Virus record (IMG/VR): IMGVR_UViG_3300045131_002929
Coordinates: 32,001 to 96,000 of that record
DNA from: a virus
Strand: one strand, 5' to 3'
Length of the DNA stretch: 64,000 bases
Below are positions 2,999-56,798 of this stretch, one piece after another. Each line of letters begins with the position of its first letter. Positions within the stretch are counted from its first letter, which is position 1. Below the pieces are notes generated by a model. The model saw only the letters and a program-made list of their open reading frames with translations, did not search any database and had not been told where the DNA came from. The position numbers and the translations under genes were made by a program.

Positions 2999-3246
2999 AG
3001 CAGCTGAAGGGCGGGGCCGCCGACGGCAGGCCGGCGCGGACCTTCGACAAGGCCGACCTGGCCAAGGGGCGCGCCGTGGAGCGCGAGCACACGGCCGACC
3101 CGCGGGCCGCGGCCGAGATAGCCAAGGACCACCTGGCCGAGTTCCCGGACTATTACGCCGAGCTGGCGCGGATGGAGGCCAAACTGGAGCGGCGCGAGCT
3201 GAACAAGCGCGCATATCTGCTCGGCTACCTAAGGCGGGACCGCTGA
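2992..3246 (+). CDS. DUF5661-like phage protein
   Basis: Signature GxxVExEH...AxEIAxDHLxExPDYYxxLxxME. Confidence 0.8.
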   Translation: MVEQLKGGAADGRPARTFDKADLAKGRAVEREHTADPRAAAEIAKDHLAEFPDYYAELARMEAKLERRELNKRAYLLGYLRRDR

Positions 3247-6200
3247 TGGCGCCCAAACTCAATTTCAAACCGCACGGCCGCGGCCTGCACCTGGACGCGG
3301 CCTCGAAGGCCCGGGCCACGCGCGTCGTCGAATCGGGCGGCGCGCTGATGTCGCCCGCGCTTTTCGGCGTGTACAAGCCGGCCGCAGTGCCCGCCTCTAA
3401 ATCCGCGTCGGGCGCCGAAGGCCAGTGGGCCGTGGACGAGAACTACTACTACTGGAACGCAGGCGGCCGCTGGCATAGGTCGGCGCTGGCCGCTTGGAGC
3501 CCGGAACTGTTCGGCTCGAGCAGCAGCAGCAGCAGCACAGGCGGCGAAAGCTTCTCGTCGGACAGCAGCTGGGGCACCTCCAGCAGCTCGAACAGCTCCA
3601 GCAGCTCGTCGCTTTCCGACTTGTCAAGCCTGAGCTCCAACTCCTCCAGCTCGTCGAACTCCTCCAGCTCGTCCAGCCAGTCGAGCTCCTCAAGCTCGTC
3701 CAGCAAGTCCAGCCAGTCGAGCTCCTCAAGCTCGTCCAGCCGCGGCGACGACTGCGAATGGATCCAGCGCTCGCCGCCTAAAGGCCCGCCGGCGCCGGGA
3801 CTCTGGTCGGCCTGCGCCATGAGCCGCGGCGGCAGGCTGCGCGCGGCGGCTGAGTATGGCGGCCGCATATGGACGTCCACGGACCACGGCGTGAGCTGGC
3901 AGGGCCGCGGATGGGCCAGCGGCGGCGCCATAGGCGACCTGCCCAAGGATCCGAACACGACGCCCTACGACATGGCGCGGCAATGGTGCCTGCTGACGGC
4001 GGCCGACGACGACAGCCGGCTGGTGGCCGCCGAGGACGGCGGCTTGATATGGGTCAGCACGGACTGCGGCATGCACTGGGCCGCGGGCACGGGCCTGGCG
4101 CCGCGCGAGTGGCGCGGGCTGGCGCTGCGCACCACGGACGGCGTGCGGCTGGCGGCCTTGGCCCTGGACGGCACGCTGGCCCTATCCTCGAACGGCGGGC
4201 AGTCGTGGACCGAATCGGCCGGACCCTGCGTCAACGCCTACGCGCTGGCCGCCGCGGCGGGCGCGACCGGGTCGAACGACATACTGGCCGTGGCCGGCTC
4301 GCCAGGCTACGTGCACATATCCCAGGACTCGGGCGCGACGTGGTCGGCCAGGGAGTCGCTGGACAAGCGCGACTGGCGCGGCCTTGCCATGGACGACGAC
4401 GGCCTTGTGCTGTACGCCTGCGCCGATAAGGAGCACTGCTGGAAATCGCTGAACGGCGGCGTGGCGTGGTCGAAGCTGGAGTCGCTGGGAAGCGGCGACT
4501 GGTCCGACGTGGCATGCGGGCCGGACGGCTCCTGCCTGATGCTGGGCGAGAACGCGGGCGCGCTGCGCGTCAGCTACGACTACGGCGGTAGCTGGCGGCG
4601 CATGGCGGCCGTGCAGCAGGACAACCTGAGCAGCTCCAGCGACGCCGTGAACGGCTGGACCGGCGTGGCCATGTCGGGCACCGGCTTCTACCTGATGGCC
4701 TGCGCGTACGGCGGCGGCGTCTGGACGTACGGATGCCTGAGCTCCACATCCTCGTCCTCCCAAGGCGACGCGTGCGCCTGGGTGGAGCGCTGGCAGCTGG
4801 GCACGCACCTTTGGCGCGCCGTGGCCTACTCGCCGCGCGGCGACCGCTGCGTGGCCGTCGGGCTCGGCGTCGGCGTGTGGCTGGGCGAGTTCCATGGCAC
4901 GCGCTGGAAGGTGTGGCCCGCCCCGCTGCAGCCCGGCCTGCCGCCCGCCTACGCCTCGCAGTCCGGCTCGCCGGAGAACCCCAACATGGACTACAGCAGC
5001 TCGAGCAGCTCGAGCAGCTCGCTGTCGTCGGAGCAGAGCAGGGCCACGAAGGGCTGGAACTGCTGCGCCATAAGCGCGGACGGATCGGTGGCCCTTATAG
5101 GCCAGGACGGCGGCAGCCTGCAGATTACGAAGACCTTCGGCGCCAGCTGGACCGTGGCCGCGGGGATAGCCCGCTGGTCGAGCTGCTCCATATCGGAGAA
5201 CGGCAACAAGATGATAGCCGGCACCAACGGCGGCCGCGTGTGGATCTCGCAGGACAAAGGCACCACATGGGTCGAGCAGACGCGCCTGCCTAGGACGCGC
5301 TGGCTGGCCGTGCTTATGGAGGGCGACGGCCGCAGGGCCTTCGCGGCCAGCAGCATCGGCATGATCTACGGCCTGGGCCTGCGCGACTGGTTCGAATCCA
5401 GCAGCTCCAGCTCCAGCTCGGGATCCGCCGACGACCCGGTGGTGACGCTCGCCGGCCTGCCGCCAGCCAAGACCAACAATAGAACGGCGGCCGTCACCGT
5501 GCTGAGCGGGCCCGACATAGGCCGCGGCCTGGTCACGCATTACGGCTATTCGGTGGACGGCGGCGAATATGAGTTCGAAGTGCCGCTGGCCGAGCCCCTG
5601 CTGCTGGCCAACCTTTCCGAAGGGCCGCACAAACTACGCGTGGTCGGCCGTTACCAGTACGACCTGCACGGCAATACGGGCGGGTATGAGGGGATCGACC
5701 ACCCGCTGGAGCATTCGTGGGCCGTGGACACCGTGCCGCCGCAGGCCGTCACCCTGACCGGGATCTCGCTCGCGCTGGCCAACAGCTCGACGGCCAACAT
5801 CACGGTGCACGCCGCCGCCGACGTGGTCGGCTACCTATGGCGGCTGGACGACGGCCCGTGGGTGGACGACGTGGTGCCGATCGGCGCGCCGCTGATCCAG
5901 CTGACGGGCCTTGCCGAGGGCCGCCATGTGGTGCACGTCAAAGGCGTGGACGCGGTCGGCAACTGGCAGGCGGCCCCCACCGTGACCGACAGCGCGGCCT
6001 GGACCGTGGACACGGTGCCGCCGGCCTACGTGGCCCTTACAGCGCCCGCCGCGCTCGTCACGAACTCGACAGTGGCCGCCTTCACCGTCAGCGGCGCGGT
6101 CGACGTGGTGGCGTACAAGTGGCGGCTGGACGCGGGCGCATGGGGCAACGAGGTGGCCATATCCAGCCCGGTCATAAGCCTAGCCGGCCTGGCCGAGGGC

Positions 6201-6974
6201 GTCCACCAGCTGTTCGCGCTGGGCCGCGACGCCGCCGGCAACTGGACGGCCGCGGAAGCCGCCAGCCAGCAGTGGACGGTCGACCTGACCCCGCCCGCGG
6301 CCACGGTGGCGGGCTACCCGGTCGGACCGGTCAACTACGCGTCCACCAACATAGCCGTGGGCGGCGCCGGCGTGGTGTCGTACCAATACAAAGTCAACGC
6401 GGCCGGCACGTATACGGCCGACATACCCGTAGGCACGCCGCTCGTGGCCACCGGACTGGCCAACGGCTTGAACAGGATCTACGTCCGCGGCAGGGACGCC
6501 GCCGGCAACTTGCAGCCCGCCGCGAGCGCCACGCAGACCGGCGAATGGACCGTGGACACCACGCCGCCGCCAGCCGTGACGCTGACGGGCGGCTTGACGG
6601 GCCTGACGACCGCGAAGGCCACCGTCTTCACAGTCGCCGCCGACGCTGACGTGGCCGCCTACAAATGGGAACTGTTCACGAACGGGACCGGCCACGGCCT
6701 GAGCCAGGCCATACCCATATACCTGACCGACTCCATCCACATACTCGACACGATATCGGAGGGCGAGCATTACATTAGGGTCATAGGCTATGACCTGGCG
6801 GGCAACCCGCAGCCGACGCCCACCATAAGCCAAACCTGGACGCTGGACACGACGGCGCCCGTGGCGCAGCTCAGCGGGGTGCCCGTAGGGGCCACATCGA
6901 CGCGCGGCGCCACCGTGACCGTAGGCGGATCAGGGGTCGTCAAATACAAATACGAGCTGGTGTACCATGTTTAG
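3246..6974 (+). CDS. Giant virion fibre/adhesin A: poly-Ser linkers, Asp-box (BNR) beta-propellers, 5.5 Ig-like repeats
   Basis: SxDxGxxW Asp-boxes (STDHGVSW, SQDSGATW, SYDYGGSW, SQDKGTTW); ~90-aa repeats ending DAAGNW...WTVDT; ends with a half repeat. Confidence 0.8.
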   Translation: MAPKLNFKPHGRGLHLDAASKARATRVVESGGALMSPALFGVYKPAAVPASKSASGAEGQWAVDENYYYWNAGGRWHRSALAAWSPELFGSSSSSSSTGGESFSSDSSWGTSSSSNSSSSSSLSDLSSLSSNSSSSSNSSSSSSQSSSSSSSSKSSQSSSSSSSSRGDDCEWIQRSPPKGPPAPGLWSACAMSRGGRLRAAAEYGGRIWTSTDHGVSWQGRGWASGGAIGDLPKDPNTTPYDMARQWCLLTAADDDSRLVAAEDGGLIWVSTDCGMHWAAGTGLAPREWRGLALRTTDGVRLAALALDGTLALSSNGGQSWTESAGPCVNAYALAAAAGATGSNDILAVAGSPGYVHISQDSGATWSARESLDKRDWRGLAMDDDGLVLYACADKEHCWKSLNGGVAWSKLESLGSGDWSDVACGPDGSCLMLGENAGALRVSYDYGGSWRRMAAVQQDNLSSSSDAVNGWTGVAMSGTGFYLMACAYGGGVWTYGCLSSTSSSSQGDACAWVERWQLGTHLWRAVAYSPRGDRCVAVGLGVGVWLGEFHGTRWKVWPAPLQPGLPPAYASQSGSPENPNMDYSSSSSSSSSLSSEQSRATKGWNCCAISADGSVALIGQDGGSLQITKTFGASWTVAAGIARWSSCSISENGNKMIAGTNGGRVWISQDKGTTWVEQTRLPRTRWLAVLMEGDGRRAFAASSIGMIYGLGLRDWFESSSSSSSSGSADDPVVTLAGLPPAKTNNRTAAVTVLSGPDIGRGLVTHYGYSVDGGEYEFEVPLAEPLLLANLSEGPHKLRVVGRYQYDLHGNTGGYEGIDHPLEHSWAVDTVPPQAVTLTGISLALANSSTANITVHAAADVVGYLWRLDDGPWVDDVVPIGAPLIQLTGLAEGRHVVHVKGVDAVGNWQAAPTVTDSAAWTVDTVPPAYVALTAPAALVTNSTVAAFTVSGAVDVVAYKWRLDAGAWGNEVAISSPVISLAGLAEGVHQLFALGRDAAGNWTAAEAASQQWTVDLTPPAATVAGYPVGPVNYASTNIAVGGAGVVSYQYKVNAAGTYTADIPVGTPLVATGLANGLNRIYVRGRDAAGNLQPAASATQTGEWTVDTTPPPAVTLTGGLTGLTTAKATVFTVAADADVAAYKWELFTNGTGHGLSQAIPIYLTDSIHILDTISEGEHYIRVIGYDLAGNPQPTPTISQTWTLDTTAPVAQLSGVPVGATSTRGATVTVGGSGVVKYKYELVYHV
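3671..3740 (+). repeat. Exact 34-bp direct repeat (36-bp period) inside the poly-Ser tract
   Basis: GTCCAGCCAGTCGAGCTCCTCAAGCTCGTCCAGC at 3671 and 3707. Confidence 0.85.
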
Positions 6975-9891
6975 CGGCGAGATCGACGTCGGCGTGCCGA
7001 TCATCATACCCTCCGGCTCGCCGGACGGCTCGTACACCGTGCGCGTGGTCGGCTGCGACGCTGCCGGCAACTGGCAGCCGGTGGAGCTGGCCACCGAGCC
7101 GCCCGAGTGGACCGTCTACACCAAGTTCAACATGACCATGGCCACGCCGCTTGGCGTCGGCACGGCCAGCCCCGCCACGGCCCAGTCAGGCCCTGGCGAG
7201 GCGGTGGCCATAAGCGCCTTGGCCGGATCCGGCTACATATTCTCCCGGTGGGTCGCCACGGGACCGGCCACATTCGAGGACTACGAATCCGCCGTGACCA
7301 CGGTCACGCTGGCCGGCGACGCCTCCGTGCGCGCCGTGTTCGGCACGCTGGTCGTGAGCTACACGCTGAACTACTCGGCCCAGGCCCACGGGGCCGTAAC
7401 CGGCGAGGCCGTCCAGGTGGTAGTCCGGGGCGCGGGCGGATCTTCCGTCACGGCTGTGGCCGAAGCCGGCTATCATTTCAGCGGATGGAGCGACGGGGTC
7501 ATGTCTGCCACCCGCGTGGACTCCAACGTCATGGCCAGCATCGCCGTATCCGCGCACTTCGCGCTGGACGCCGCGCTGTACACCGTGATCTTCGCCGCGG
7601 GCGCGCACGGCTCGCTCTCGGGCGACCTGACTCAGTCGGTGGCTTACGGCGACAGCTGCACAAGGGTGTTCGCCCTGTCCGCGACAGGCTACCGATTTTC
7701 CAGATGGAGCGACGGCTCGACCTATTCGTACCTCACGTTGACCGGCGTGACGTGCGACATGACGCTGACCGCTTTCTTCGAGATAGAGACAGGATATAGG
7801 TACTTGAAGTACCAGGCGTCGACGGGCGGCAGCATAGCGGGCAACGCCGACCAGTCGATCCCCACCGACAGCACAGGCTCTCAAGTCACGGCCGTCGCTC
7901 TGGCCGGCTATCACTTCAAAATCTGGAGCGACGGGTCGGCGCGGGCCACCAGGACGGACACTGCCGGCTATGACAAGACGTTCACGGCCTATTTCGAAGT
8001 GAATTTCTTCACCGTGGCCTACGCGGCCACGGATGGCGGCTCCGTGACGGGAACCCTGATCCAGAAGATCAACGCCGGCAGCTTTGGGTCCGAAGTCGTG
8101 GCCACGCCCGACGAAGGGCACCATTTCACCTACTGGAGCGACGGGCTGGCCACGGCCGCACGGACGGAGTACGACGTCACCTACAACATGACGCTGACCG
8201 CCAACTTCCTGCCCGACGCCAGCAACGTCACGCTGGCCTACTCCGCGGGCCTGCACGGCGCGATCGAAGGCGTGGCCACGCAATCCGTGCCCGTTGGCGG
8301 CTCGGGCTCGCAGGTAACGGCGGTTCCGGACGCGGGCTACAGATTCGCCTACTGGGACGACGGCGTGGGCACGGCCGCGCGCACCGACTCGAACGTCATG
8401 TTCGGCAAGGCCCCCACCGCCTACTTCGAACGTTTGAAATACACCCTGGAGTATACGGCGGAATACGGCGGCGAGATCCAAGGGACCACTCTGCAGACCG
8501 TGTCCCCGGGCGGCGACGGCACTTACGTGGCGGCCGGGGCCCATACTGGATACCGTTTCATCAAGTGGTCGGACGGCCTGGCCACAGCGGGCCGCGTAGA
8601 CTGGAACGTGACTTGCAGCTTATCCGTGTCCGCTTTCTTCGATATCATCAAAAGCGCATACGTGCTGACCTACACGGCCGGAATGGGCGGCTCGATATCA
8701 GGCTCGAAGACGCAGCTAGTCGCCAGCGGGGGCACTGGATCCTCTGTGACCGCCATGCCCGCCGCGGGCCATCATTTCGTGATGTGGAGCGACGGGCTGG
8801 CCACAGCCGCCCGGACGGACTCCTTAGTGTACTGCGACAAGGCGCTCACGGCCTACTTCGCCGCCGACTCGGCGGCTTATCTGCTTGCATACGCCACGGA
8901 CGGCAACGGGACGCTGGCGGGCGCCGCGGTCCAGTCCGTAGCGTCCGGCGGCTCCGGCACCGAAGTCGTGGCCGTGGCGAACACGGGATACCACTTCAGC
9001 GGTTGGAGCGACGGGTACGCGCGGGGGGCCCGCACCGACCTGAACGTCAAAATGGATATAACGGCCACGGCCATGTTCGCGCTGGGCGGCCAGAACTGCG
9101 TGGTGACATATTCCGCCGGGCCATGCGGCTCGGTTACCGGAATACTCACCCAGTCGGTGGCCCAGGGCGGCGCGTGCACGGCCGTGACGGCCGTGCCGGA
9201 CTCCGGCTACCACTTCGTGACGTGGAGCGACGGGTCGACGTCGGCCACCAGGACCGACCTAGGCGTGGCCTGCGACCGAACGTACATGGCCGTGTTCGAC
9301 CCGAGCGTGTACACGGCCGACTATAGGGCAGGGCCGAACGGGTCTATCAGTGGATCAGCGCACCAGTTGATATCGCACGGTCACAATGCCAGCTCAGTGA
9401 CGGGCGTGCCTTCAGGTTATTATAGAAAGTCCCACTGGAGCGACGGATACCCGTTGACGGCGAACATGGGCGTGCGCGTAGACCAAGCCGTGGACCACAA
9501 CATAGACGCCGCGATCTACTTCTATCTGCCAACTTACAGCGTCTCAGTCTCCGCGGGGGCAGGCGGCACGGCCACCCCTGACACCGTGGGCGGCGCCATC
9601 GCCATGGCGGGCGAAACCGTGGTCGCGCTGCGCGCCGAGCCCGCCGTCGGATACGTGTTCAGCAAGTGGACGGTGCTGCGCGGCAGCGCGCCCGCTGCCC
9701 CTACGGCTGCGGACACTACGGTCACGGTGGGCGCCGACACCTCGATAAGGGCCGACTTCGCCGTCCTCGTGCCGAGCGCCGCCTTCGTAAGCGGTGTTCC
9801 GACCGGAACCACGAACGTGCAAGGCGGCACAGTCGTCGTCGGTGGGTCGAACGTGGTATCGTATAAGTATGAAATAGTCAAAGTCAGTTAG
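6967..9891 (+). CDS. Giant virion fibre/adhesin B: about 12 divergent InlB B-type repeats flanked by two half Ig-like repeats
   Basis: Ten G(Y/H)xFxxW(S/D)DG-type repeats of ~73 aa plus two GYxFSxW repeats. Confidence 0.8.
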   Translation: MFSGEIDVGVPIIIPSGSPDGSYTVRVVGCDAAGNWQPVELATEPPEWTVYTKFNMTMATPLGVGTASPATAQSGPGEAVAISALAGSGYIFSRWVATGPATFEDYESAVTTVTLAGDASVRAVFGTLVVSYTLNYSAQAHGAVTGEAVQVVVRGAGGSSVTAVAEAGYHFSGWSDGVMSATRVDSNVMASIAVSAHFALDAALYTVIFAAGAHGSLSGDLTQSVAYGDSCTRVFALSATGYRFSRWSDGSTYSYLTLTGVTCDMTLTAFFEIETGYRYLKYQASTGGSIAGNADQSIPTDSTGSQVTAVALAGYHFKIWSDGSARATRTDTAGYDKTFTAYFEVNFFTVAYAATDGGSVTGTLIQKINAGSFGSEVVATPDEGHHFTYWSDGLATAARTEYDVTYNMTLTANFLPDASNVTLAYSAGLHGAIEGVATQSVPVGGSGSQVTAVPDAGYRFAYWDDGVGTAARTDSNVMFGKAPTAYFERLKYTLEYTAEYGGEIQGTTLQTVSPGGDGTYVAAGAHTGYRFIKWSDGLATAGRVDWNVTCSLSVSAFFDIIKSAYVLTYTAGMGGSISGSKTQLVASGGTGSSVTAMPAAGHHFVMWSDGLATAARTDSLVYCDKALTAYFAADSAAYLLAYATDGNGTLAGAAVQSVASGGSGTEVVAVANTGYHFSGWSDGYARGARTDLNVKMDITATAMFALGGQNCVVTYSAGPCGSVTGILTQSVAQGGACTAVTAVPDSGYHFVTWSDGSTSATRTDLGVACDRTYMAVFDPSVYTADYRAGPNGSISGSAHQLISHGHNASSVTGVPSGYYRKSHWSDGYPLTANMGVRVDQAVDHNIDAAIYFYLPTYSVSVSAGAGGTATPDTVGGAIAMAGETVVALRAEPAVGYVFSKWTVLRGSAPAAPTAADTTVTVGADTSIRADFAVLVPSAAFVSGVPTGTTNVQGGTVVVGGSNVVSYKYEIVKVS

Positions 9892-9899
9892 GAGCGGCC

Positions 9900-12800
9900 A
9901 TGGCCTGGAGCGACGAAATACCTGTCGGGACGCCGATAACCATCCCCTTGGACCTGGTGGACGGAGTGTACCGCATCCTGGTGATAGGTAAGGCCCCCGC
10001 GGGCAACTGGCAGGCCACCGCGCTGACCAGTTCCAACTGGACGCTGGACACGACGGCGCCCACGGCTGTGATCGGGTCGCCGCCGGCCAGTCTCACAAAC
10101 CTCACCTCTTTCTCGATCGCTATAACGGGCGCAGGGGTAACCCAGTACAAATACGCATTGAACGGCGGCGCGTACAGCCAGCCCAGTAGCATAAGCTCGC
10201 GCATCGCCCTAAGCGGGCTCGCCGATGGAGCTTACTCGCTGGACGTGGTCGGGCGCGACGCGGTCGGCAACTGGCAGACGACGCCCACGACCTACAGTTG
10301 GGTAGTGGACACCACGGCCGCCGTGGCCGTGCTCTCCAATACCCCGCAGCCCGTGACCCAAGAAACTTCGGCGACTATCTCCGTGGACGGAACCGACGTG
10401 GTGGCCTATATGTATAAGCTGAATGGCGGAGCATGGTCCGCCTCCACCCCGGTGGCCACGCCTATAGCTCTGGCTAACCTTACTGAGGGGACCTATTCGC
10501 TATCCGTCAAAAGCGTGGACGCGGCCGGCAACTGGCAGGTGGCGCCCACGACCTACAGTTGGGTAGTGGACACCACGGCCCCCATCGCGGTGCTGTCCAA
10601 CGCTCCACAGCCCGTGACCGCGGCGACTTCGGCGACTATATACGTGGGCGACGACGTGGTGGCCTATATGTATAAGCTGAATGGCGGAGCATGGTCCACT
10701 TCCACCCCGGTGGCCACGCCTATAACCCTGTCGAACCTTACTGAGGGGGCTTACACGCTGGACGTGGTCGGGCGCGACGCGGCCGGCAACTGGCAGGTGG
10801 CGCCCACGACCTACAGTTGGGTAGTGGACACCACGGCCCCCATCGCGGTGCTGTCCGGAGTTCCGCAGCCGCTATTCCTAACGATTGATGTTAGTCATGC
10901 GCATATATACGTGGGCGGAACCGACGTGGTGGCCTATATGTATAAGCTGAATGGCGGAGCATGGTCCACTTCCACCCCGGTGGCCACGCCTATAGGCGTG
11001 GACCTTTACCACGGAGCTTACTCTCTGGAAGTGGTCGGCTGCGACGCGGTCGGCAACTGGCAGACGACGCCCACGACCTACAGTTGGGTAGTGGACAAGC
11101 CGCTGTTTGCTGTGCTGTCCGGCGCTCCGGAGGAACATACCAAAGAGACTTCGGCGACTATATACGTGGGCGGCGACGACGTGGTGGCCTATATGTATAG
11201 GCTGAATGCCGGGTTATGGTCCGCCTCCACCCCGGTGGCCACGCCTATAACCCTGTCGAACCTTACTGAGGGGGCTTACACGCTGGACGTCAAAGGCTTG
11301 AATCCGGAGAGCAGCTTGCCGACGTGGAACCGCCTGCACTACTGGGTGGTGGACACGACGGCGCCCACGGCTGTGATCTGGTCGCCGCCGGCCAGTCTCA
11401 CAAACCTCACCTCTTTCTCGATCAATATAACGGGCGCAGGGGTAACCCAGTACAAATACGCGTTGAACGGCGGCGCGTACAGCCAGCCCATTAGCATAAG
11501 CTCGCACATCGCCCTAAGCGGGCTCGCCGATGGAGCTTACTCTCTGGAAGTGGTCGGCTGCGACGCGGCCGGCAACTGGCAGACGACGCCCACCACGGCC
11601 AGCTGGACGGTCGACGCCACGGCCCCCATCGCGGTGCTGTCCAACGCTCCACAGCCCGTGACCGCGGCGACTTCGGCGACTATCTCCGTGGGCGGAACCG
11701 ACGTGGTGGGATATGCGTATAGGCTGAATGGCGGAGCATGGTCCAATTACGTCCCGGTGGCCACGCCTATAACCCTGTCGAACCTTGCTAAGGGGGCTTA
11801 CTCGCTGTACGTGGCCGGCCACGACGCGGCCGGCAACTGGCAGGTGGCGCCCACGACCTACAGTTGGGTAGTGGACGAGGCGCTCACGGCCGTGCTCGGC
11901 GGCAGCGTGCCGAGCGGGGTCTACACCCAGTATGTCCAAGGGATAAGCGTGGGCGGCTACGGCGTGACTCACTATAAATATTCGCTCAACGGCGGGGCCT
12001 ACACCGACGAGGCGCCTATAAGCGCGGCTATAGATCTGCCTATGTTGCCGGACGGCGAATACACGCTGGACGTCATAGGCAGGGGGCTGGCGGGGAACTG
12101 GCTGGGCACCCCCACCCACGCCGCCTGGTCTTTACTGATACCGCCGCCTGTGGCTACGGTAAGCGGCATCCTCAACCCTTCTCTCAGCACTGTAAACGCC
12201 TCCATAGGCGGAGCAAGGGTGGCCGCGTTTAACTACAAGCTAGACCAGATGACTACTATAGGTCCCGTCGTCGCAAGCGGGTACGGGCTCAGTCTGAACA
12301 TCGAGCCCAACGGGCCGCATCAGTTGTCTGTGTGGGGAATCGACCTCGCAGGCCGGGTGCAGACTACGCCTACGGTTGTAGAGTGGACCGTGGACTCCGC
12401 CCAGCCTGTATTCAACCTAGTCTATGACGCCGGCGGCGCGAACGGCACCGTTCCGTTCGATAACAAATGGTATTTTATGAACAGCAAGGTGTATCTAGCT
12501 AGCGCGTCCACTTTGAACTACCCCTCTAAAAAGTTCAACAGCTGGTTTATGTCCGACTACGGCTCTAGGAATCCCGGTGAATACATAATGACGCCTACCG
12601 CAGCGCCCCAAGGCGGGCATATTATTTTCTGCCAAGCCCAGTGGACCATTTTTAATTGGTATGCCGCTAATTCCAGTATTCTGTATATCACCGGTGTTGT
12701 CAATAACGTGCCCCAGAGCGGAACCGTCACAATACCCTATTCCTTAGGGCACCAAGCTGTAACTGTAATTGGCAACAATTGTTTTAAAGATATGTCGGCC

Positions 12801-13298
12801 ATATCCAGTGTGGTTTTGAACTGCACCTCGCTTAGCGAAATACAAAGCCAGGCGTTCGCCGGCTGCAGCGGAATGACTTCCATAACCACGCCTAACTCCC
12901 TGACCCGCTTAGGCGTTAGCGCGTTCGAAGGGTGCTCCAGCCTGACGGCCTTTACGATCCCTGTCGACTTGACCGTTATTCAAAACCGCGCCTTCTACGG
13001 CTGCTCCAGTATATCTTCAATCAATATAGGCGCCACGAATGTTAGCTTGGTAGGCGAGGCCGCCTTCCAAGGCTGCGCCAGCTTGAGCGACTTGTCTTTC
13101 GGTACGACGCTGCAGGTTGTAGGCGCGAACGCTTTCACGGGCACTGGCATCACCCATGCACACTTCAAAGGCAACGCGCCGTCCATTCAATCCACATCCT
13201 ACCCGGCAGGCACCGTGCTGCATTATGTTCCAGGCAAGACCGGCTGGACTAATCCGATGGCAGGTTTCACGACCGTAGGCGACGAAACACCCTACTAG
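9900..13298 (+). CDS. Giant virion fibre/adhesin C: 9.5 Ig-like repeats, one InlB-B-like repeat, C-terminal BspA-type LRR
   Basis: AGGAG RBS; repeats VVAYxYKLNGGAWS...DAAGNWQ...WVVDT; LRR_5-type motifs (IQSQAFAGCSGMTSI, LGVSAFEGCSSLTAF, AFYGCSSISSI). Confidence 0.85.
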   Translation: MAWSDEIPVGTPITIPLDLVDGVYRILVIGKAPAGNWQATALTSSNWTLDTTAPTAVIGSPPASLTNLTSFSIAITGAGVTQYKYALNGGAYSQPSSISSRIALSGLADGAYSLDVVGRDAVGNWQTTPTTYSWVVDTTAAVAVLSNTPQPVTQETSATISVDGTDVVAYMYKLNGGAWSASTPVATPIALANLTEGTYSLSVKSVDAAGNWQVAPTTYSWVVDTTAPIAVLSNAPQPVTAATSATIYVGDDVVAYMYKLNGGAWSTSTPVATPITLSNLTEGAYTLDVVGRDAAGNWQVAPTTYSWVVDTTAPIAVLSGVPQPLFLTIDVSHAHIYVGGTDVVAYMYKLNGGAWSTSTPVATPIGVDLYHGAYSLEVVGCDAVGNWQTTPTTYSWVVDKPLFAVLSGAPEEHTKETSATIYVGGDDVVAYMYRLNAGLWSASTPVATPITLSNLTEGAYTLDVKGLNPESSLPTWNRLHYWVVDTTAPTAVIWSPPASLTNLTSFSINITGAGVTQYKYALNGGAYSQPISISSHIALSGLADGAYSLEVVGCDAAGNWQTTPTTASWTVDATAPIAVLSNAPQPVTAATSATISVGGTDVVGYAYRLNGGAWSNYVPVATPITLSNLAKGAYSLYVAGHDAAGNWQVAPTTYSWVVDEALTAVLGGSVPSGVYTQYVQGISVGGYGVTHYKYSLNGGAYTDEAPISAAIDLPMLPDGEYTLDVIGRGLAGNWLGTPTHAAWSLLIPPPVATVSGILNPSLSTVNASIGGARVAAFNYKLDQMTTIGPVVASGYGLSLNIEPNGPHQLSVWGIDLAGRVQTTPTVVEWTVDSAQPVFNLVYDAGGANGTVPFDNKWYFMNSKVYLASASTLNYPSKKFNSWFMSDYGSRNPGEYIMTPTAAPQGGHIIFCQAQWTIFNWYAANSSILYITGVVNNVPQSGTVTIPYSLGHQAVTVIGNNCFKDMSAISSVVLNCTSLSEIQSQAFAGCSGMTSITTPNSLTRLGVSAFEGCSSLTAFTIPVDLTVIQNRAFYGCSSISSINIGATNVSLVGEAAFQGCASLSDLSFGTTLQVVGANAFTGTGITHAHFKGNAPSIQSTSYPAGTVLHYVPGKTGWTNPMAGFTTVGDETPY
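10045..11878 (+). repeat. Seven ~260-bp intragenic tandem repeats of two sub-types, near-identical at DNA level
   Basis: For example 10045-10237 vs 11350-11542, and recurring blocks such as GGTGGCCTATATGTATAAGCTGAATGGCGGAGCATGGTCC and GCCCACGACCTACAGTTGGGTAGTGGAC. Confidence 0.9.
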
Positions 13299-18527: not shown

Positions 18528-20006
18528 ATGACAGATGGCGTGATCTACTTCAACGTCGGCACCAAGTGCCTCCACAGGCTGGCCGTGTCGCTGCGCTCAA
18601 TGCGCAGAATACACTCAGGGCCCTGCGCCGCACTTTGCGCCGACGAATGCCCGCGATGGTTCGCGGAGCTGGCCCGCGCGCTCGACGTCGAACTCCGCGC
18701 CTTCGATCCTGAAGGGCTGCCCCCGCTGGTATTGAAGGCGCGGCTGCACCGCCACAGCCCTTTCGACCGCTCGCTCTTCATAGACGCGGACACGCTGGTG
18801 ACCGGCCGCTTCGACGAGCTTTTCGACCTGATAGGCGAATATGGCTTCGCCGTGGGCCGCTTCGCCGGATGGCGCACCAAGGGCCGGACCATCGCCAGCC
18901 GCATAGCGGCCATGGCCCCGGCGTGCGGGCCGGCCATGGTGGCCGCCGCCTTGGCCTACGGCCCGGCTGTGAACACCGGGGTGTTCGGCTTCACGAAGGA
19001 TTCGAAATTTTTAGAGCCGTGGGCGGACCTTACGCTGCGCGCCCACGAGCTCGGGTGCTCCCGCATACCGGACGAGCTCGCGTGCCAGATGCTGCTGCCC
19101 GCCATCCGCAGCGCGACTTTCGACGAACGCTACGGCGAGTCGGTGAAATTCGGCAAGCTGGGTCCGACCACCCGCATAGTCCATTACCACGGCCGCAAGC
19201 ACGCGCAGGGCTTCCCGGCATGCGGCGAGTGGAAGCGGGCCTACTGGGAGCTCATGGCCGAATGCACGGACGAGGTCCGGGCCGGCCTGGCCGCGGACCT
19301 CGGCGACAAGACGCTGCGCAACTACCGGCGGCGCGAGGCGCTGACCTTCGTCACGGCGGTGGATCCGGGCTATCTGGCCAGCCTGCGGGCCAACTTTCCG
19401 CTTATGGCGGAGGTCGCCGGAATAGCTGGCGAGCCTTGGATCTGCTATGTGAACGGGATTCCCATCGACGACCCGCGGCTTGACTTCCTGAAGGGCCGCG
19501 CCCTTGTGCGAGCCTGGGACTTCGACGCGCCCACCCAGCGCGAGCGGATGCTGACCTGTTTCGTGAAGGCCGCGCCGTTCGACGTCAAGACGCCGCGCTG
19601 GGTCAAGGTGGACGCTGACGTCCGGCCGAGTGGCGCCGCTTTCAAATTCGAGGCGGGCTGGCGCGGCGCGGCGCTCGTAGGCCACCGCTGGCATTACACC
19701 AAGCCTGGCCGATGGCTGCGCGGCCTGGAGGAATGGGCGGACGCCCACCCAGGTTTCGCGGGCAGCGCCCGGCTGTTCACGGCGGGCCATCTGGTGGACG
19801 CCGACGCGCAGCTTCGCTACGGCCACCCCAGGATAGCCTCGTTCATGTGCGCGCACGACACGGCGTTCACGCGTAGATGCGCCGAGCTGGCGGGCCCGGG
19901 GCGGCTGCCGGTGCCCAGCCACGACACTTTCCTATGGTACTGCGCGGCGCGGCTGGGCGAGCCTATCGCCCGTACCAACTTCAAGAAGAAGGGCTTCCAC
20001 CCATGA
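18528..20006 (+). CDS. Two-domain GT-A glycosyltransferase-like protein (N-terminal domain GT8-like)
   Basis: SLFIDADT, NTGVFGF, DE, IVHYHG; second DxD in WVKVDAD. Confidence 0.75.
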   Translation: MTDGVIYFNVGTKCLHRLAVSLRSMRRIHSGPCAALCADECPRWFAELARALDVELRAFDPEGLPPLVLKARLHRHSPFDRSLFIDADTLVTGRFDELFDLIGEYGFAVGRFAGWRTKGRTIASRIAAMAPACGPAMVAAALAYGPAVNTGVFGFTKDSKFLEPWADLTLRAHELGCSRIPDELACQMLLPAIRSATFDERYGESVKFGKLGPTTRIVHYHGRKHAQGFPACGEWKRAYWELMAECTDEVRAGLAADLGDKTLRNYRRREALTFVTAVDPGYLASLRANFPLMAEVAGIAGEPWICYVNGIPIDDPRLDFLKGRALVRAWDFDAPTQRERMLTCFVKAAPFDVKTPRWVKVDADVRPSGAAFKFEAGWRGAALVGHRWHYTKPGRWLRGLEEWADAHPGFAGSARLFTAGHLVDADAQLRYGHPRIASFMCAHDTAFTRRCAELAGPGRLPVPSHDTFLWYCAARLGEPIARTNFKKKGFHP

Positions 20007-20734
20007 TAGAGCTGAACGCGCAGTGCCACTCGTTCGGCATGCGGCTATGCTGGATGCTGTCCAGCCTGGCCGACCAGCGCGGAGCCGCCGGCCTGTTCAA
20101 AGTGTCCGTGGCCTACGCCGCCGACGAGCCGGGGGCGCTGGCCGCCTGCAGAGTGCTGGACTATTTCAAGGGCCGCCTGAGCCTAGTCCGCAGGGAGTAC
20201 CCCGACATGGCCGCCATGATGCTGCGCGGCCGCACCCGCTCGGCGGCCGCCATGGACACGGACGCGGAGTGGATCTTCTTCGCGGACTGCGACGCCGTGT
20301 ACCACCCGGACTACATGGCGGCGCTCGCGTCGGAGCTAGGTCGCCTGCGCGGCGAGGCCGCCGGCAAGTGCGTCTGGTCGGCGCGGCGCACGATGGCCGT
20401 GGAGGCCGGCGAGGCGCTGGTGGGCTCGATGGCCAGGCCGGCCTATGTCCCTGACTCTTTCAAAAGGGCCGACGCCGTCTCCACTGCGTGGTCGAAGCCG
20501 TGCCCCTGCGTGGGCAACACCCAGATAGCCCTGGCCGCCGACGTGAGGGCGCGCGGCGGGTACTCGCCCGGCAAAGCCGACGCCAGCTGGCTGGCCGGCG
20601 CGGGCAACACGAAGAGCGACGTCGGCTTCAGAAGGTCGATGGACGGATGCCTCAGGCTCGAGCTGCCTGATCAGATACACATAAACCACAAGCGCGACGC
20701 GGGTTCCGGCAGGCACCTGACGGAGCAAAGGTAG
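20003..20734 (+). CDS. GT2-like glycosyltransferase
   Basis: ATG 20003 overlaps the upstream stop (ATGA); WIFFADCD, GGY...SDVGF, HINH. Confidence 0.7.
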   Translation: MIELNAQCHSFGMRLCWMLSSLADQRGAAGLFKVSVAYAADEPGALAACRVLDYFKGRLSLVRREYPDMAAMMLRGRTRSAAAMDTDAEWIFFADCDAVYHPDYMAALASELGRLRGEAAGKCVWSARRTMAVEAGEALVGSMARPAYVPDSFKRADAVSTAWSKPCPCVGNTQIALAADVRARGGYSPGKADASWLAGAGNTKSDVGFRRSMDGCLRLELPDQIHINHKRDAGSGRHLTEQR

Positions 20735-21805: not shown

Positions 21806-22057
21806 ATGGCCGACGAGAATGGATACAAAACCCTTGCGCCGATGGTCCACTACGGGGTCAACCGCAAATACGGCCCGCACATCGGCATAGGCGGCGCCGG
21901 CGCCAAAGTGCATCTATATCCGCAGTTCATCCACATAGGCGGGGCCGACGACGCGGAGCGCGTGCCGCTGACCCCTAGGCAGGTTCGGCTGGTCTCGAAG
22001 ATAATAGAGCAGATGGGCCGGCTGCCGGCCCAGACCGGAGATTCCAATGCTACCTGA
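21806..22057 (+). CDS. Hypothetical protein
   Basis: 83 aa, fills the gap and overlaps the next gene. Confidence 0.5.
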   Translation: MADENGYKTLAPMVHYGVNRKYGPHIGIGGAGAKVHLYPQFIHIGGADDAERVPLTPRQVRLVSKIIEQMGRLPAQTGDSNAT

Positions 22058-22961
22058 CATCTGTCTCACATGCGGCGACAACGAGTCGGCCACCGCCATC
22101 GGCAGGCCGGAAGGCGTGGGCGGCGGGGTGCCCGACTCGGCGTCGCTGTCGCAGACCGGCATGGCCTCGCGCGGCTCGATAGGCGGCCGCTGCAAGAACA
22201 AGCCTGTGCTGTCCATGGTCAGCCGTTCCGCCCGCACCTTCGTCGTCGCGCTTCAGCGCGCCGACGGATCGCCCGTCGACCTTACAGGCCTGACCGCCGA
22301 GTTCGCCGCCAAAGAGGACAACAGGGCGATCACATTCTACATCCGCAAGCCGATGGTCGTGGCCGACGCCGCGGACGGGCTGCTCACGGTGGATCTGCTG
22401 CCGGACGAGGTTCTCCATGGCGGCGTGTGGCTGGCCGCCATCCTGCTTAGCGGGACGCCAGGCCTGCTCGCCACTTACGACTTGTGGCTCCACGTCGAGA
22501 AAAGCATCCTGTCCTCCGACAGGAAGAACAACATGGTCACGATTCCAGAGCTGCGGCTGGTCCTCATGGACCGCTGCCCGGCCGACAATCCGCTGCTGGA
22601 CGACGTGGACTTCTCGGACTCCGACCTCTGCAGCGCCATCACGCTGCCCGTCTACGAGTGGAACGAGACCCCACCCGTGCTCGAGCAATACACCTACACG
22701 CCGGCCACGTTCCCCTATAAGTACAACTGGCTGCAGGCCGCGGCCGGCGAGGCGATGCGCATAACGGCGCGCAGGCTGTCGCGCAACAGGCTGGTGTACA
22801 CGGCCGGCGGCGTGAACGTGGACGACCTGGCCCGGGCGCAGGTCTACGCGCAGATGGGCCAGGAGCTGCGCGACGAGTGGAAGACTTGGATGATGCGCGA
22901 GAAGGTAAGGCTGAACGCCGAACAGATATACGGAGGGGTCCGCTCGCGGATCTACTACTGA
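22047..22961 (+). CDS. Putative neck/head-tail adaptor protein
   Basis: Position upstream of tail genes; PVDLTG beta-sandwich segment followed by a helical adaptor-like domain. Confidence 0.5.
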   Translation: MLPDICLTCGDNESATAIGRPEGVGGGVPDSASLSQTGMASRGSIGGRCKNKPVLSMVSRSARTFVVALQRADGSPVDLTGLTAEFAAKEDNRAITFYIRKPMVVADAADGLLTVDLLPDEVLHGGVWLAAILLSGTPGLLATYDLWLHVEKSILSSDRKNNMVTIPELRLVLMDRCPADNPLLDDVDFSDSDLCSAITLPVYEWNETPPVLEQYTYTPATFPYKYNWLQAAAGEAMRITARRLSRNRLVYTAGGVNVDDLARAQVYAQMGQELRDEWKTWMMREKVRLNAEQIYGGVRSRIYY

Positions 22962-23902: not shown

Positions 23903-24556
23903 ATGGCCGATTTCACAGAACCAGTATGGACTACGCCGCAGGACGTCGAGCCCTGCGTCCGCTCGTCCATGGAGCGGGACCGGGACCCTTTCAAAATAAC
24001 CGGCCTGGTCGTGCAATTCCTGAGGAGCCGATTCTTCACCGGCGCGAACATAGGCAACCCGGATCTTAAAGGCTACCTATGGTCGGCCGACGACGCCGCC
24101 AGCCGGATCCTGATAGAGCCAGCTTTCCGGTACAAGACGCGCGACGTTGGCAGAAGACCTGCTTATCTCGTTGCCAGACAGCAAGTGGCAGCCGAGCAGA
24201 CGGCTTTGAGCGGCAGCCGGATGACCATGATGTCGGAGAACAGAGGCGGCCTTACCGGGGTCTGCTACAACATGATCGTCAAGGGCTCGCACCAGATAGC
24301 CTGCGTCGGTCAGACGGGAGCGGAGGCCGAGGCGCTGGCCATCGAGGCGTTCTACGCCTGCATGGAGTTCGCGCCCGTGTTGAAAAGCGAGGGCGCGCTG
24401 GGTAGATTAAGCGTAGATGGAATGGGTCCGCTGCAGAAGATCGATGAGAACCAGGAGAATCTATCGGTGGTCGTATCGCTGTCCTGGGCCTACACCCATA
24501 GCTGGACGCTTTCGCAAACGGCGCCCATCTTGAAAAGTATAATAGCAGTCAACTAA
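23903..24556 (+). CDS. Putative tail completion/terminator protein
   Basis: Size and position immediately before the sheath gene. Confidence 0.45.
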   Translation: MADFTEPVWTTPQDVEPCVRSSMERDRDPFKITGLVVQFLRSRFFTGANIGNPDLKGYLWSADDAASRILIEPAFRYKTRDVGRRPAYLVARQQVAAEQTALSGSRMTMMSENRGGLTGVCYNMIVKGSHQIACVGQTGAEAEALAIEAFYACMEFAPVLKSEGALGRLSVDGMGPLQKIDENQENLSVVVSLSWAYTHSWTLSQTAPILKSIIAVN

Positions 24557-24569: not shown

Positions 24570-27236
24570 ATGGCATACGTTCAACCGCAACTCAAGATCC
24601 ACGAGGAGTTCACAACGGCGCAGGCCTCCGGCGTATCGCCGCTGTACGCGTGCCTCGTCGGACCCAAGTACAAACTACACCGCTACTCACAGAGCGCCGA
24701 GAAGGCTCTGCTAGGCGCCTACTCCCCGAGCGTCGCGCTCACCGGCGCATACCCCGGCAAAGTCGCGGGCGGCGTGGTCGACCAGGCCTCCGTGTCCGTG
24801 TGGCTCGAAAAAGGCAGGCTGGCCTACTACAGCGGCGCCGATTTCGCCATGCCGGCCGGATCCGCGGCGGGCACCAACAAACTGGCCTCCGACAAGACCT
24901 TGCGCGCTTCGATCGGCTACGACCGCGACGCCGCCTTCGGGTCGCGCGACGTGTCGCTCAACGACCGCGTCGAAGTCACATGGACCGAGGGGGCGGACAC
25001 CGGCTACAGGGCCACCCGCGTGATGGGCTTCATCAACGAGGTGGAGGCGGCTGTCGAAAACGTCGTCGCGGGGGCCAACAAGGCCGCCGTGGCCGTCGGC
25101 TCCGTCGCCGTCGCCAGCAACACGATCGACGCGCTGGCCGAGCTCACGCCCGCCGCCGTCGCGGGCAGCGCCTACTCCGGCATCCGATATGGATACCCCG
25201 AGGAGGTCTACACGGTCCGCGTGACGAAGTCCGGCGGCAGCGGCGTGGCCGAGGCCATGATCCTCTCCGACTCCGGCACCGACGACGTCCTCAACAAGGT
25301 GGTCAACTTCACGTCCACCGACATCGGAACCCGCGGCGTCAAGCTCAAATTGACGGCCGACTCGGGCACCGGGCTGTTGACGCTCGGCGAGGAGATCGTC
25401 GTCAACGCCAGCCAGACGTACGCTGTTCCGACGCTCACGCCGAACGCGACGTACGGCGGGCCGGCCGACACGACCTACATCGTCCAGTGCATGCTGGGCG
25501 GAACCGTCGGGATCAACACCGTCGACAACCCAGCCCCCGCCTATAAGGTGACCACGACCAACGGCGTGGACGCCATGGCCTCCACGCAGATCCTCGCGGC
25601 AGGCTCCATCGCCATCGGCAACTACGGAGTGTGCCTAACGGTGGCCTCCGGCGCGAAGTTCTGCAAAGGCGACTCATGGACCGTCAAAGCCAACGCCGAC
25701 ACGTTCGGCGCGATCAAGACGATGGTCCTGGCCGACAAGCTGGTCGACGAGACCGACGCGAACATCAAGTGCACGACGGCCTCGACCGTGACCATCAAGA
25801 TCGGGCTGCCGGCGGACGTCAAACTGCCGCGCGCCGCCTACGCGCTCACCTCGAGCGCGGTCACGGTGCCAGCGGGGCTGACCTACCGCGGCAACTACCT
25901 CGGATCCGACCAGACCTTCCCGGTCATGGCCGGCGACATGTACGTCGACTACCGCGAGTTCATCGCCTCGGGGGCCAACGAGGTCCGCGCCGTGGGCAGC
26001 TCCGCAGACGTGCTCGCGCTCCTCGGACCGGCCAGCGAATCCAACCCTCTCGCCCTCGCCGCCGATTTGGCGCTCGCGAACAGCGGCGGATCGCCCGTCT
26101 ATTACGTCCAGGTCGCCTCCGACGACGTCGCGGGCTACACCGCGGCCCTGGACGCCACGACCAACACGCAGGAGGTCTACTCCCTCGTGCCTTTGACCAA
26201 GGCCGAGGCTGTGAAGAGCCTGGTGGCCGCCCACGTGGCCGACCAGTCCTCCGCCTACAAGAACAACTGGCGCATCGCCTGGTTCGGATCCTCCATCGGG
26301 GATCAGAAGCCCGTCTACGTCAGCGAGGCCGGCATGGACGTACTTGCCACCGTGGTCAAGCCCGGTGGCAACGAGTACGCGGACCTGATCAGCAGCAACG
26401 GCAAGTTCGTCACCAACGAGGTGGCCGTCGGCGATGTGATCCGGTACAACTACCAGCCCAGCACGAGCGGCGTCACGACCTACACGGAAGGCGTGGTCGT
26501 GGCCGTGGTCTCCGAGGACGAGCTGCGCATCTCCGCGCTCGACGAGGAGAACTTCGACAACGAGATCAAGATCGAGCTTTGGCGCCCGCGCTCGCAGACG
26601 GCCATGGCCGGCGACATCGCGGCCGAGTCCAACGGATACGGCAACCGCCGCGTCCGCAACATCTGGCCCGACGCCCTGCCCTTGGAAGACGGAACGGAAG
26701 TCCCGAGCCAGTTCCTGGCCGCGGCCCTCGCGGGCCTGCGTTCAGGCTCCGCGCCCCACCAGCCCTTGACCAACGTGTCGATCGCCGGTTTCGGAATTCC
26801 GACCAGGACCAACATGTTCCCGGCCTCCGACCTGAACACGATCGCGGGCGGCGGCACTTGGATCGTGATGTCCAGCTCCGGCGACGTCATCACGCGCCAT
26901 CAGCTGACCACCGACATGAGCGACATCAACATGCGCGAGGACACCGTCACGTGCAACGTCGACTCGCTCGCCAGGCGGTACCGCTCCGGGTTCGCCGACC
27001 TGACGGGCAAGGGCAACGTGTCGCAGGAGATGCTGGACGTCATCCGCATGCGGCTGCTGTCCGTCTCGTCCGCGATCCTCGCCGTGGCGTGGCCCGCCGC
27101 CATCGGACCGCAGATGCAGGGCTTCGATATAACGGGCATCTGGATCGACCCCGTCCTGAAAGACCAGGTGCACGTCAGGGTGACTCCGTTGCTGCCCTAC
27201 CCGTTGAACAACCTGGACGTCTACATCACCATCTAA
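24570..27236 (+). CDS. Contractile tail sheath protein
   Basis: MAYVQP start; AAALAGL..SAPHQPLTN, LNTIAGGG, RHQLTTD..RE..NVD, PYPLNNLDVYITI sheath-type C-terminus; strong codon bias. Confidence 0.8.
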   Translation: MAYVQPQLKIHEEFTTAQASGVSPLYACLVGPKYKLHRYSQSAEKALLGAYSPSVALTGAYPGKVAGGVVDQASVSVWLEKGRLAYYSGADFAMPAGSAAGTNKLASDKTLRASIGYDRDAAFGSRDVSLNDRVEVTWTEGADTGYRATRVMGFINEVEAAVENVVAGANKAAVAVGSVAVASNTIDALAELTPAAVAGSAYSGIRYGYPEEVYTVRVTKSGGSGVAEAMILSDSGTDDVLNKVVNFTSTDIGTRGVKLKLTADSGTGLLTLGEEIVVNASQTYAVPTLTPNATYGGPADTTYIVQCMLGGTVGINTVDNPAPAYKVTTTNGVDAMASTQILAAGSIAIGNYGVCLTVASGAKFCKGDSWTVKANADTFGAIKTMVLADKLVDETDANIKCTTASTVTIKIGLPADVKLPRAAYALTSSAVTVPAGLTYRGNYLGSDQTFPVMAGDMYVDYREFIASGANEVRAVGSSADVLALLGPASESNPLALAADLALANSGGSPVYYVQVASDDVAGYTAALDATTNTQEVYSLVPLTKAEAVKSLVAAHVADQSSAYKNNWRIAWFGSSIGDQKPVYVSEAGMDVLATVVKPGGNEYADLISSNGKFVTNEVAVGDVIRYNYQPSTSGVTTYTEGVVVAVVSEDELRISALDEENFDNEIKIELWRPRSQTAMAGDIAAESNGYGNRRVRNIWPDALPLEDGTEVPSQFLAAALAGLRSGSAPHQPLTNVSIAGFGIPTRTNMFPASDLNTIAGGGTWIVMSSSGDVITRHQLTTDMSDINMREDTVTCNVDSLARRYRSGFADLTGKGNVSQEMLDVIRMRLLSVSSAILAVAWPAAIGPQMQGFDITGIWIDPVLKDQVHVRVTPLLPYPLNNLDVYITI

Positions 27237-31202: not shown

Positions 31203-31703
31203 ATGGACGGAGCAAGCGCGGCAGAGCAGGATATGAACGAGCGGAAGGCATGCCCGCGGTGCGGGTTGCCGCTGGCGAAGGACTACTCCGACAAGCCCTC
31301 GGCCGAAGACCGCAAGAACTACATAAGGGCGGTGCTCGGCGGCAAACGCTTCCAGAAGGAGTTCACCTTCTTCGACGGCGCCCTCAAGGTCATGTTCCAG
31401 GAGATGACCGGCGGGGAGTCCAAGAAGCTGTTCGCGGCTATCAGCGAGCTCGAGTCCGATTCGAACCTAATGCCCAAGGCCGTGCGCATGAAAATGGGAC
31501 TATGCACCGTGTACGTCGACAAAGGCGGCCAGCGCGCGGACACCCTGAACGCCGAAGTCACGCGCGAAAGCCTCGAGGCGGCCTATGACAAGGCCTATGG
31601 CAGCTTGCCCGAGAGCGTGGTGGCCACAGTCCACGGCGCTTTCGCCGCGTTCAACAGCATAGTCGGCAAGATCGGGGAGTCCTGCCTGGATAAAAATTTT
31701 TAA
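31203..31703 (+). CDS. Tail assembly chaperone (gpG-like)
   Basis: Upstream of tape measure; ends ...DKNF* on slippery A AAT TTT; N-terminal CPRC. Confidence 0.75.
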   Translation: MDGASAAEQDMNERKACPRCGLPLAKDYSDKPSAEDRKNYIRAVLGGKRFQKEFTFFDGALKVMFQEMTGGESKKLFAAISELESDSNLMPKAVRMKMGLCTVYVDKGGQRADTLNAEVTRESLEAAYDKAYGSLPESVVATVHGAFAAFNSIVGKIGESCLDKNF

Positions 31704-56173: not shown

Positions 56174-56798
56174 GAAATATAGAGACGCGGCTGAGGCTTT
56201 CGCTGATCCGGAGCTGTTCGGATCAGCGGCGCTCGTCCTCGCCTACGACATGCTCGGCGACTTCTTCGAATGGGAGCCTGAGACCATCGAGGCGGACCTC
56301 CGCGCCAACGGCGCGCGGCCGGGGCGCGGCTGCATGGACCGGCTTATGGCCGCTGCCACCGTGCGGTCGTCCGCCGCCTTCCACGAGAGTCTGGAGACCT
56401 TCATGGACGTCTGCCACGCCTTGAACTTCGGCAGGGTGTCGGCTTCCGCGATGTCGAACGCGGACCTGGACGACGTGGCGTGGGGCTGCGTCGAGGCCCG
56501 CGTGATAGAAGGCACCGAGGCCTTCGACGCGAACGGGTTCGCGGACGACGTCAGACTGTACGCTGGGTTCCTGCTCGACAGGGCCGGCTTCGACAAGGCG
56601 CCGCGCATACTGGACTTCGCCGAGCTGCCGCAAGGCCGCGGGGCCGACCTGCCGCTGGACGGCACGCTGCTCGGCGTGTTCGCGTCGAACGTCGCGGAGA
56701 TGACGGAGCAGCTGGACGCCGGCGCGTCGGCCCGGCTGCAGAAGCTGTTCGAGCAGATGCGCCGGCTGCCTTTGCGCTCAGGCAAAGTGCCTAATTAA
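56166..56798 (+). CDS. Hypothetical acidic protein
   Basis: 210 aa, overlaps the upstream gene; WEPETI motif. Confidence 0.65.
   Translation: MTEKYRDAAEAFADPELFGSAALVLAYDMLGDFFEWEPETIEADLRANGARPGRGCMDRLMAAATVRSSAAFHESLETFMDVCHALNFGRVSASAMSNADLDDVAWGCVEARVIEGTEAFDANGFADDVRLYAGFLLDRAGFDKAPRILDFAELPQGRGADLPLDGTLLGVFASNVAEMTEQLDAGASARLQKLFEQMRRLPLRSGKVPN

Follow-up and report, generated by a model that had tools for sequence, protein, structure and literature searches.

Two Ig-like domains cut at the same loop across consecutive gene junctions of an uncultured lake phage: a possible split-domain joint between giant adhesin-like proteins

Three consecutive genes of an uncultured lake phage, here called A, B, and C, divide an immunoglobulin (Ig)-like repeat between neighboring products twice, and at the same position of the domain. 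Protein A ends with the first half of a repeat and B begins with a second half; B in turn ends with a first half, and C begins with a second one. The genes lie in a window of 64,000 nucleotides, which comprises bases 32001-96000 of the linear, 146.6-kb IMG/VR record IMGVR_UViG_3300045131_002929 (CheckV completeness 79%). The G+C content of the window is about 65%, and the stretch is contained in public lake-water and freshwater metagenome runs. Both cuts, their identical position, and the start and stop signals that accompany them recur in independent samples. It is, in our opinion, very probable that A, B, and C are real genes, coupled but each initiated separately. That their products rejoin by rebuilding the Ig-like bead, as structural modeling weakly suggests, we consider an evenly balanced proposition.

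The three genes are co-directional and occupy separate reading frames; their domain content was established by translation, Pfam searches, and a repeat profile. Gene A (3246..6974, plus strand; 1242 aa) consists of an N-terminal region, poly-Ser linkers, BNR/propeller-like repeats, five intact and one divergent Ig-like repeats, and the final half-repeat. Gene B (6967..9891, plus strand; 974 aa) starts with the second half of an Ig-like repeat, continues with 11 stretches of Flg_new_2 (InlB B-repeat), and ends with the first half of an Ig-like repeat. Gene C (9900..13298, plus strand; 1132 aa) carries a second half, nine intact repeats, and a C-terminal BspA-type LRR_5 domain. The Big_13 family (PF19077) matches C with 80.3 bits (E 1.7e-22), above its gathering threshold of 27 bits, and A with only 22.7 bits, under that threshold; C is additionally matched by Y_Y_Y and Big_3_3. 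Matches of Flg_new_2 (PF18998) in B (278.6 bits across the 11 stretches) and of LRR_5 (PF13306) in residues 980-1100 of C (153 bits) are both above the gathering thresholds. At E ≤ 0.01, the three proteins match no intein family, which speaks against a split intein and trans-splicing.

The position of the cuts was determined with a hidden Markov model (HMM) of 87 positions, derived from 13 intact Ig repeats of about 87 aa. The C-terminal half-domain of A (6849..6971, plus strand) covers HMM positions 1-37, i.e., strands A-B-C, and is followed by a four-residue tail, VYHV; the N-terminal half-domain of B (6967..7122, plus strand) covers positions 42-86, i.e., strands C′-E-F-G. Analogously, the C-terminal half-domain of B (9769..9888, plus strand) covers positions 2-37 and is followed by the four-residue tail VKVS, while the N-terminal half-domain of C (9900..10049, plus strand) covers positions 41-87. 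All four are significant against the family HMM (E-values of 8e-8, 1.4e-8, 2.8e-5, and 4.2e-11). The alignment agrees: A and B both end at a TAG codon four residues beyond the strand C motif YKYE[LI], and the initiator Met of B and that of C both align with the final Gly of the NGG turn. For two breaks placed at random in 3348 aa, we roughly estimate at about 0.006 the probability that both hit an Ig repeat and lie at most one residue from the same column. Thus, the original prediction of an Ig-like domain broken at the same NGG-turn point at both junctions is borne out by HMM and alignment alike, and its description proved accurate in every detail that could be checked.

Structural modeling places the cut in a loop. 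The AlphaFold2 model of the intact repeat is confident, with a predicted local distance difference test (pLDDT) score of 86.5, and shows an Ig-like β-sandwich of six to seven strands (residues 7-9, 21-26, 31-36, 51-53, 59-68, and 79-85). The cut falls after residue 36, where the longest loop of the model (37-44) begins. Since this point follows strand C, the upstream protein has strands A-B-C and the downstream protein has strands C′-E-F-G. Foldseek relates the model to generic Ig-like sandwiches, namely SiiE BIg, PKD, FN3, and Y_Y_Y domains, with template modeling scores of 0.6-0.69 and all E-values above 0.001.

The DNA of both junctions is organized as that of coupled genes. In intact repeats, the codons of the YxYx[LI] motif are followed by 6 nt, which encode Asn-Gly, and then by the codons of Gly-Ala-Trp-Ser. 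At the A/B junction (6967..6974, plus strand), 7 nt stand in place of these 6 and are followed by ATG. The ATG of B (6967-6969) and the TAG of A (6972-6974) define an 8-nt overlap, in which the end of A (GTT TAG) overlaps codons 2-3 of B; the Shine-Dalgarno (SD)-like motif GGTG, found also at other starts in the window, lies 4 nt before the ATG. At the B/C junction, where a cassette was read from the sequence (9877..9899, plus strand), 23 nt stand in place of 6, a net insertion of 17 nt, and the Gly codon has become ATG. In this cassette, the tail codons are followed by TAG (9889-9891) and, overlapping it, AGGAG (9890-9894), from which the ATG at 9900 is separated by a 5-nt spacer; the cassette thus adds the parts of a coupled start and leaves an 8-nt gap between B and C. 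The overlap and gap of 8 nt, the ATG starts, and the AGGAG before C had all been noted in the original prediction, and translation and direct reading of the sequence agree with it.

Other features of the junctions point the same way. In the frame of B, as in that of C, the ATG is the earliest possible start codon. The motifs TAGGAGcggccATG and ctGGTGtaccATG upstream of the two starts resemble those at other starts of the window, such as ggtAGGAGcctATG at 31203 and ctGGTGagccATG at 23903, and also those at 51854 and 43474. The start regions of B and C are among the 5-10% of 60-nt windows in the A-C block that are lowest in G+C and least structured, a property that they share with the starts of A and of the gene that follows C. 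Judged by these sequence features, the junctions look like evolved gene boundaries.

An assembly or sequencing artefact, that is, indels or a repeat collapse in a metagenomic contig, could in principle produce such breaks, the more so in a repetitive region like this one, in which public contigs are interrupted within the C repeats near 10230-10300. Nevertheless, both junctions are free of indels in contigs of other assemblies and studies. The A/B junction is covered by a 6.5-kb contig (X1), which spans 6600-10252 without gaps, and by a 263-bp contig from another study and year (X5), which spans 6799-7061 with zero differences. The B/C junction is covered by X1 and by a 2165-bp Joint Genome Institute contig (L002), which corresponds to 8066-10230 of the window and has an identical B/C stop, gap, and start, with three single-nucleotide polymorphisms (SNPs) and no indel. 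These three SNPs are common to X1 and L002 and absent from the window; therefore, their assembly is independent of that of the window. A further contig (X2; 8536-9917) ends 18 nt beyond the start of C and was not counted as bridging B/C. No indels were reported in the four public runs compared with the window, and the B/C difference is a net insertion of 17 nt rather than a one-nucleotide error. An artefact is thus extremely unlikely. The earlier argument that error or decay would hardly strike the same residue twice is strengthened with respect to error, which the independent contigs, having no frame-restoring indels, effectively exclude.

Programmed recoding would reunite the halves by other means: a +1 shift at GTT TAG (A/B) and a -1 shift or hop at B/C would give, at least in part, a fused protein of about 3350 aa. 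A +1 shift at GTT-TAG-C would indeed keep the domain colinear, with 14 residues from YKYEL to the PI of strand E versus 15 in intact repeats, and the frame of C is open for nine codons before its ATG. In +1 sites of the prfB type (CUU-UGA-C), an SD sequence lies about 3 nt upstream of a slippery codon that can re-pair in the +1 frame. The A/B junction does not conform to this pattern: unlike at CUU-UGA, the slip would force the tRNA-Val reading GUU onto UUU with a mismatch at the first position, and the nearest SD-like sequence, GGTG, is 6 nt upstream. The sole window permissible for a -1 shift, 9873-9891 (ATA GTC AAA GTC AGT TAG), contains no X-XXY-YYZ heptamer of the dnaX type in the zero frame, and homopolymer runs that could promote transcriptional slippage are absent at the junctions. 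Moreover, recoding would need neither an ATG at the same domain column in B and C nor the optimally spaced AGGAG of C. Reading of TAG as sense was rejected, because readthrough remains in the wrong frame and because TAA, TAG, and TGA all serve as stops in the window. We therefore regard recoding as highly improbable.

The two cuts need not have arisen separately. The first halves, at the C-termini of A and B, are each other's best match, with 52% identity versus at most 46% to any intact repeat; therefore, the breaks need not be independent. Of the second halves, that of B is nearest to that of C (44%), whereas that of C is slightly nearer to an intact repeat of C (48%). One ancestral cut, later duplicated, may fit these sequence relations at least as well as two independent cuts. 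Thus, of the original proposal of two independent events, the breakage at one and the same site stands, and the events may as well have been one. The junctions have diverged to about 44-52% identity, yet every half still scores significantly as a member of the domain family.

Whether the halves could associate was addressed by complex prediction for the C-terminal 40 residues of B and the N-terminal 53 residues of C, using our own alignments of the repeat halves of the window and three controls. The pair scored 0.50 versus 0.02 for the best control, which the tool classes as "weak support". Of 80 solved complexes, 58 attain the pass mark, as do 2 of 110 mismatched pairs; these counts are only a rough guide here, as our own alignments were used. 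The runs agreed in at least 94% of contacts, and the partners had pLDDT values of at least 75. Each of the two half-domains reached a pLDDT of 76-78 beside its true partner versus 38-58 beside an unrelated chain. It should be noted that this result indicates compatibility of the two halves, not binding, and that the earlier proposal of refolding in trans gains weak support from it. The AlphaFold2 model of whole B, made without an alignment, has a pLDDT of 27.9 and is uninformative on whether the two ends of B pair in cis.

We propose that A, B, and C would have arisen when an adhesin-like bead-string protein was split within two Big_13-like Ig repeats, each cut being placed in the long loop after strand C. 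Under translational coupling, the end of A (or B) would leave the ribosome last, while the start of B (or C) would be made by the coupled ribosome, so that adjacent halves could co-fold into one β-sandwich. The three proteins, presumably translated separately, would thereby be locked non-covalently, in the order A-B-C, into an appendage of about 3350 residues with the leucine-rich repeat (LRR) domain at its tip. An argument from design supports such a joint: a cut between beads severs the chain, while a cut inside a bead leaves pieces that are able only to fold together.

Several points weigh against this proposal. The joint is predicted from sequence and structural modeling, and the complex prediction covers the cognate B/C pair. 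With a score of 0.60 or under, the pass mark was attained by only 7 of the 80 solved complexes but by both mismatched pairs that passed. Moreover, since intact Ig-like domains abound among solved structures, a pass at 0.50 may reflect only likeness to them or model memory. No PHROG tail-fibre family matches A or B, and therefore a role of the proteins in a fibre is suggested by their domain content and their place in a structural module. Finally, no close homologues of A, B, or C were found among 5.8 billion protein clusters or in IMG/VR, which leaves no diverged relatives in which the cut could be seen to persist; nor was another clean cut at this position found in 363 proteins, mostly bacterial, with 2218 domain copies.

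The same observations bear on a rival history, in which fission was not followed by re-association: the genes would be separate, the terminal halves would be unfolded vestiges, and B and C would be independent, attached in some other way, or in the course of being lost. The weak support from complex prediction, the lack of relatives showing long-term retention, and the lack of a second instance of the cut are all as expected from this history, and at 65% G+C long frames stay open by chance, as illustrated by a 482-aa antisense open reading frame (ORF). However, the halves retain the core pattern of the family despite about 50% divergence between the junctions, the junctions are tightly coupled, and a cut between domains would be far likelier if no joint were needed. 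Furthermore, Pfam recognizes in B nothing but Flg_new_2 repeats, i.e., no other module by which it could be attached. On balance, we consider fission without re-association possible but rather unlikely. A variant of the split-domain joint would make the joints promiscuous, so that B could close on itself, form head-to-tail polymers (A-Bn-C), or be left out (A-C), and the appendage would vary in length. The identity between junctions (52% for first halves and 44% for second halves) and the common motifs YKYE[LI]V and EIxVGxPIxIP make cross-pairing structurally conceivable. Translational coupling, however, would be expected to favor cognate neighbors kinetically, and we consider promiscuous joints distinctly improbable.

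Apart from fragments of the proteins themselves, searches for relatives of A, B, and C yielded nothing but generic bacterial repeat proteins, with identities of no more than 44%. P0004, a fragment of B, and P0189, which is A from a later start, were set aside as self matches. There was no blastn match among GenBank phages, and no relative of B was found in IMG/VR. A domain-pattern scan of IMG/VR recovered a single distant locus, L001, in a giant-virus metagenome-assembled genome, and nothing else. The phages nearest by terminase are only 32-33% identical, and the records searched (G001, of 191 kb, and G002) lack the domain. The profile of the N-terminal half had 1667 matches among representative proteins; the best 150 of the 1667 are multi-repeat proteins, a ranking below which proteins with a single half-domain would fall. 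Several apparent cuts were rejected. P0210, a candidate for another N-terminal half, is unusable, as it comes from an ENA contig with many fragmented genes; P0132, P0222, and P0357 have a different start position or are truncated where their contig ends. On L003 (ENA contig_47102, 5630-8499), an ORF of 78 aa with a Big_13 match directly precedes an 832-aa protein, whose start falls within the same domain. This apparent split looks like the product of assembly frameshifts, the genes of the contig being fragmented (e.g., BBP7 is in three pieces).

The original prediction drew an analogy with donor-strand complementation in pili. In chaperone-usher pili, the pilin lacks one strand (G), the neighboring subunit provides it as a short extension of its N-terminus, and assembly needs a periplasmic chaperone and an outer-membrane usher. 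The likeness is that an incomplete Ig-like fold is completed by a neighbor to give a non-covalent fibre. In the pili, however, a single strand is missing and identical or similar subunits polymerize, whereas here half a domain would be contributed by each protein, presumably in the cytoplasm. Pfam scans of the large neighboring ORFs found no chaperone or usher families; small ORFs were not scanned. The analogy is thus loose only, because three strands on one protein would meet four on the next, as opposed to one strand filling a groove.

Two phage systems solved experimentally come closer. In the baseplate tripod of Lactococcus phage Tuc2009, a 25-residue C-terminal hairpin of BppU completes the β-sheet of domain 2 of BppA, forming a titin-Ig-like composite (PMC4742702). 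As in the present case, an Ig-like sandwich of a phage adsorption device is made from two gene products, the C-terminal strands of one completing the other. Compared by structure description only, the two differ in that the two-strand hairpin of BppU joins the C-terminal domain of its partner, whereas here three and four strands would join a C-terminus to the next N-terminus, and the joint would occur twice in series, in a Big_13-like repeat of giant adhesin-like proteins. In our case, a composite joint of the Tuc2009 type is weakly predicted, by the complex score of 0.50 versus 0.02. In the nozzle of the Pseudomonas podophage A1002, the platform and propeller domains are divided over two proteins, gp39 and gp42, and are rebuilt by structural complementation, as seen by cryo-electron microscopy (PMC13730344). 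Here too, domains of a tail protein are split between two genes and rebuilt through added β-strands; unlike in the present case, these are β-propeller and platform domains rather than an Ig-like bead, there is one split, and no fibre segments are chained. The earlier remark that nothing of the kind is described for phage fibres must therefore be narrowed: a composite Ig-like domain and a split tail domain have been solved (PMC4742702; PMC13730344), while literature searches turned up no account of successive fibre genes linked through Ig domains cut half-and-half.

Some further observations concern the three genes themselves. In gene A, the poly-Ser linkers between modules are long (3515-3740 and other tracts). 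In all four lake runs, contigs from other organisms have only pieces of 35-42 nt in common with gene B (8134-8168 and 9176-9217), at 90-95% identity; these probably represent a conserved Flg_new_2 DNA motif and not the phage. Gene C contains a 1305-nt block duplication (10036-10335 and 11341-11640), in which 300 nt are 90% identical and, when compared with contig L002, 195 nt are 97% identical. The public contigs break in this duplication, and the SNPs between assemblies (10119-10201) all fall in it. Four intact repeats of C carry GGCGGAGCATGG at the NGGAW loop (10425-10436, 10683-10694, 10953-10964, and 11730-11741). This sequence consists of an SD-like GGAG, one nucleotide, and an out-of-frame ATG, and it lies at the very loop in which both gene cuts occur; one idea is that NGGAW codons may predispose the loop to becoming a gene start. 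A, B, and C all stop at TAG, while the other 30 plus-strand genes listed for the window mix TAA, TAG, and TGA.

The surrounding genes place the three in their context. The window encodes a tail sheath (24570-27236), a BppU_N-like baseplate protein (22047-22961), and a large terminase (56795-59521, minus strand), and therefore a large myovirus-like phage is indicated. The terminase ORF encodes 908 aa, of which the first ~310 residues weakly match the helicase family phrog_30356 (E 9e-8), and may be a fusion or have an extra N-terminal domain. Two long co-directional ORFs, 18528-20006 and 19877-20734, neither of which has a Pfam match, overlap by 130 nt; the overlap could be due to a mis-called start or a frameshift, or it could be true.

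At the level of DNA, the case is well defined and provides a clean, testable example. It also carries a warning for annotation: truncated terminal domains in adjacent phage genes are not necessarily errors or marks of pseudogenes. Were the halves to refold in trans, they would form a natural, enzyme-free connector, in which an end of about 40 residues and a start of about 50 residues lock two giant proteins together via one Ig-like bead. Such a connector would explain how appendages thousands of residues long can be built from genes of manageable size, and how recombination at the joint could exchange such segments. Engineered split-domain tools would thereby gain a natural counterpart; in an artificial system of this kind, Dutta, Batori, Koide and Koide reportedly obtained complementation of engineered FN3 fragments in 2005 (Protein Sci 14:2838), with high affinity to judge by the title. 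A broader reading is that large uncultured phages and giant viruses share a general, hitherto undescribed split-Ig connector for long modular appendages made of separately encoded segments. In this phage, the connector would be so symmetric that B could be inserted, skipped, or repeated (A-C, A-B-C, A-Bn-C). We consider this reading quite doubtful; were it true, the length and reach of the fibre could be tuned while its tip remains unchanged.

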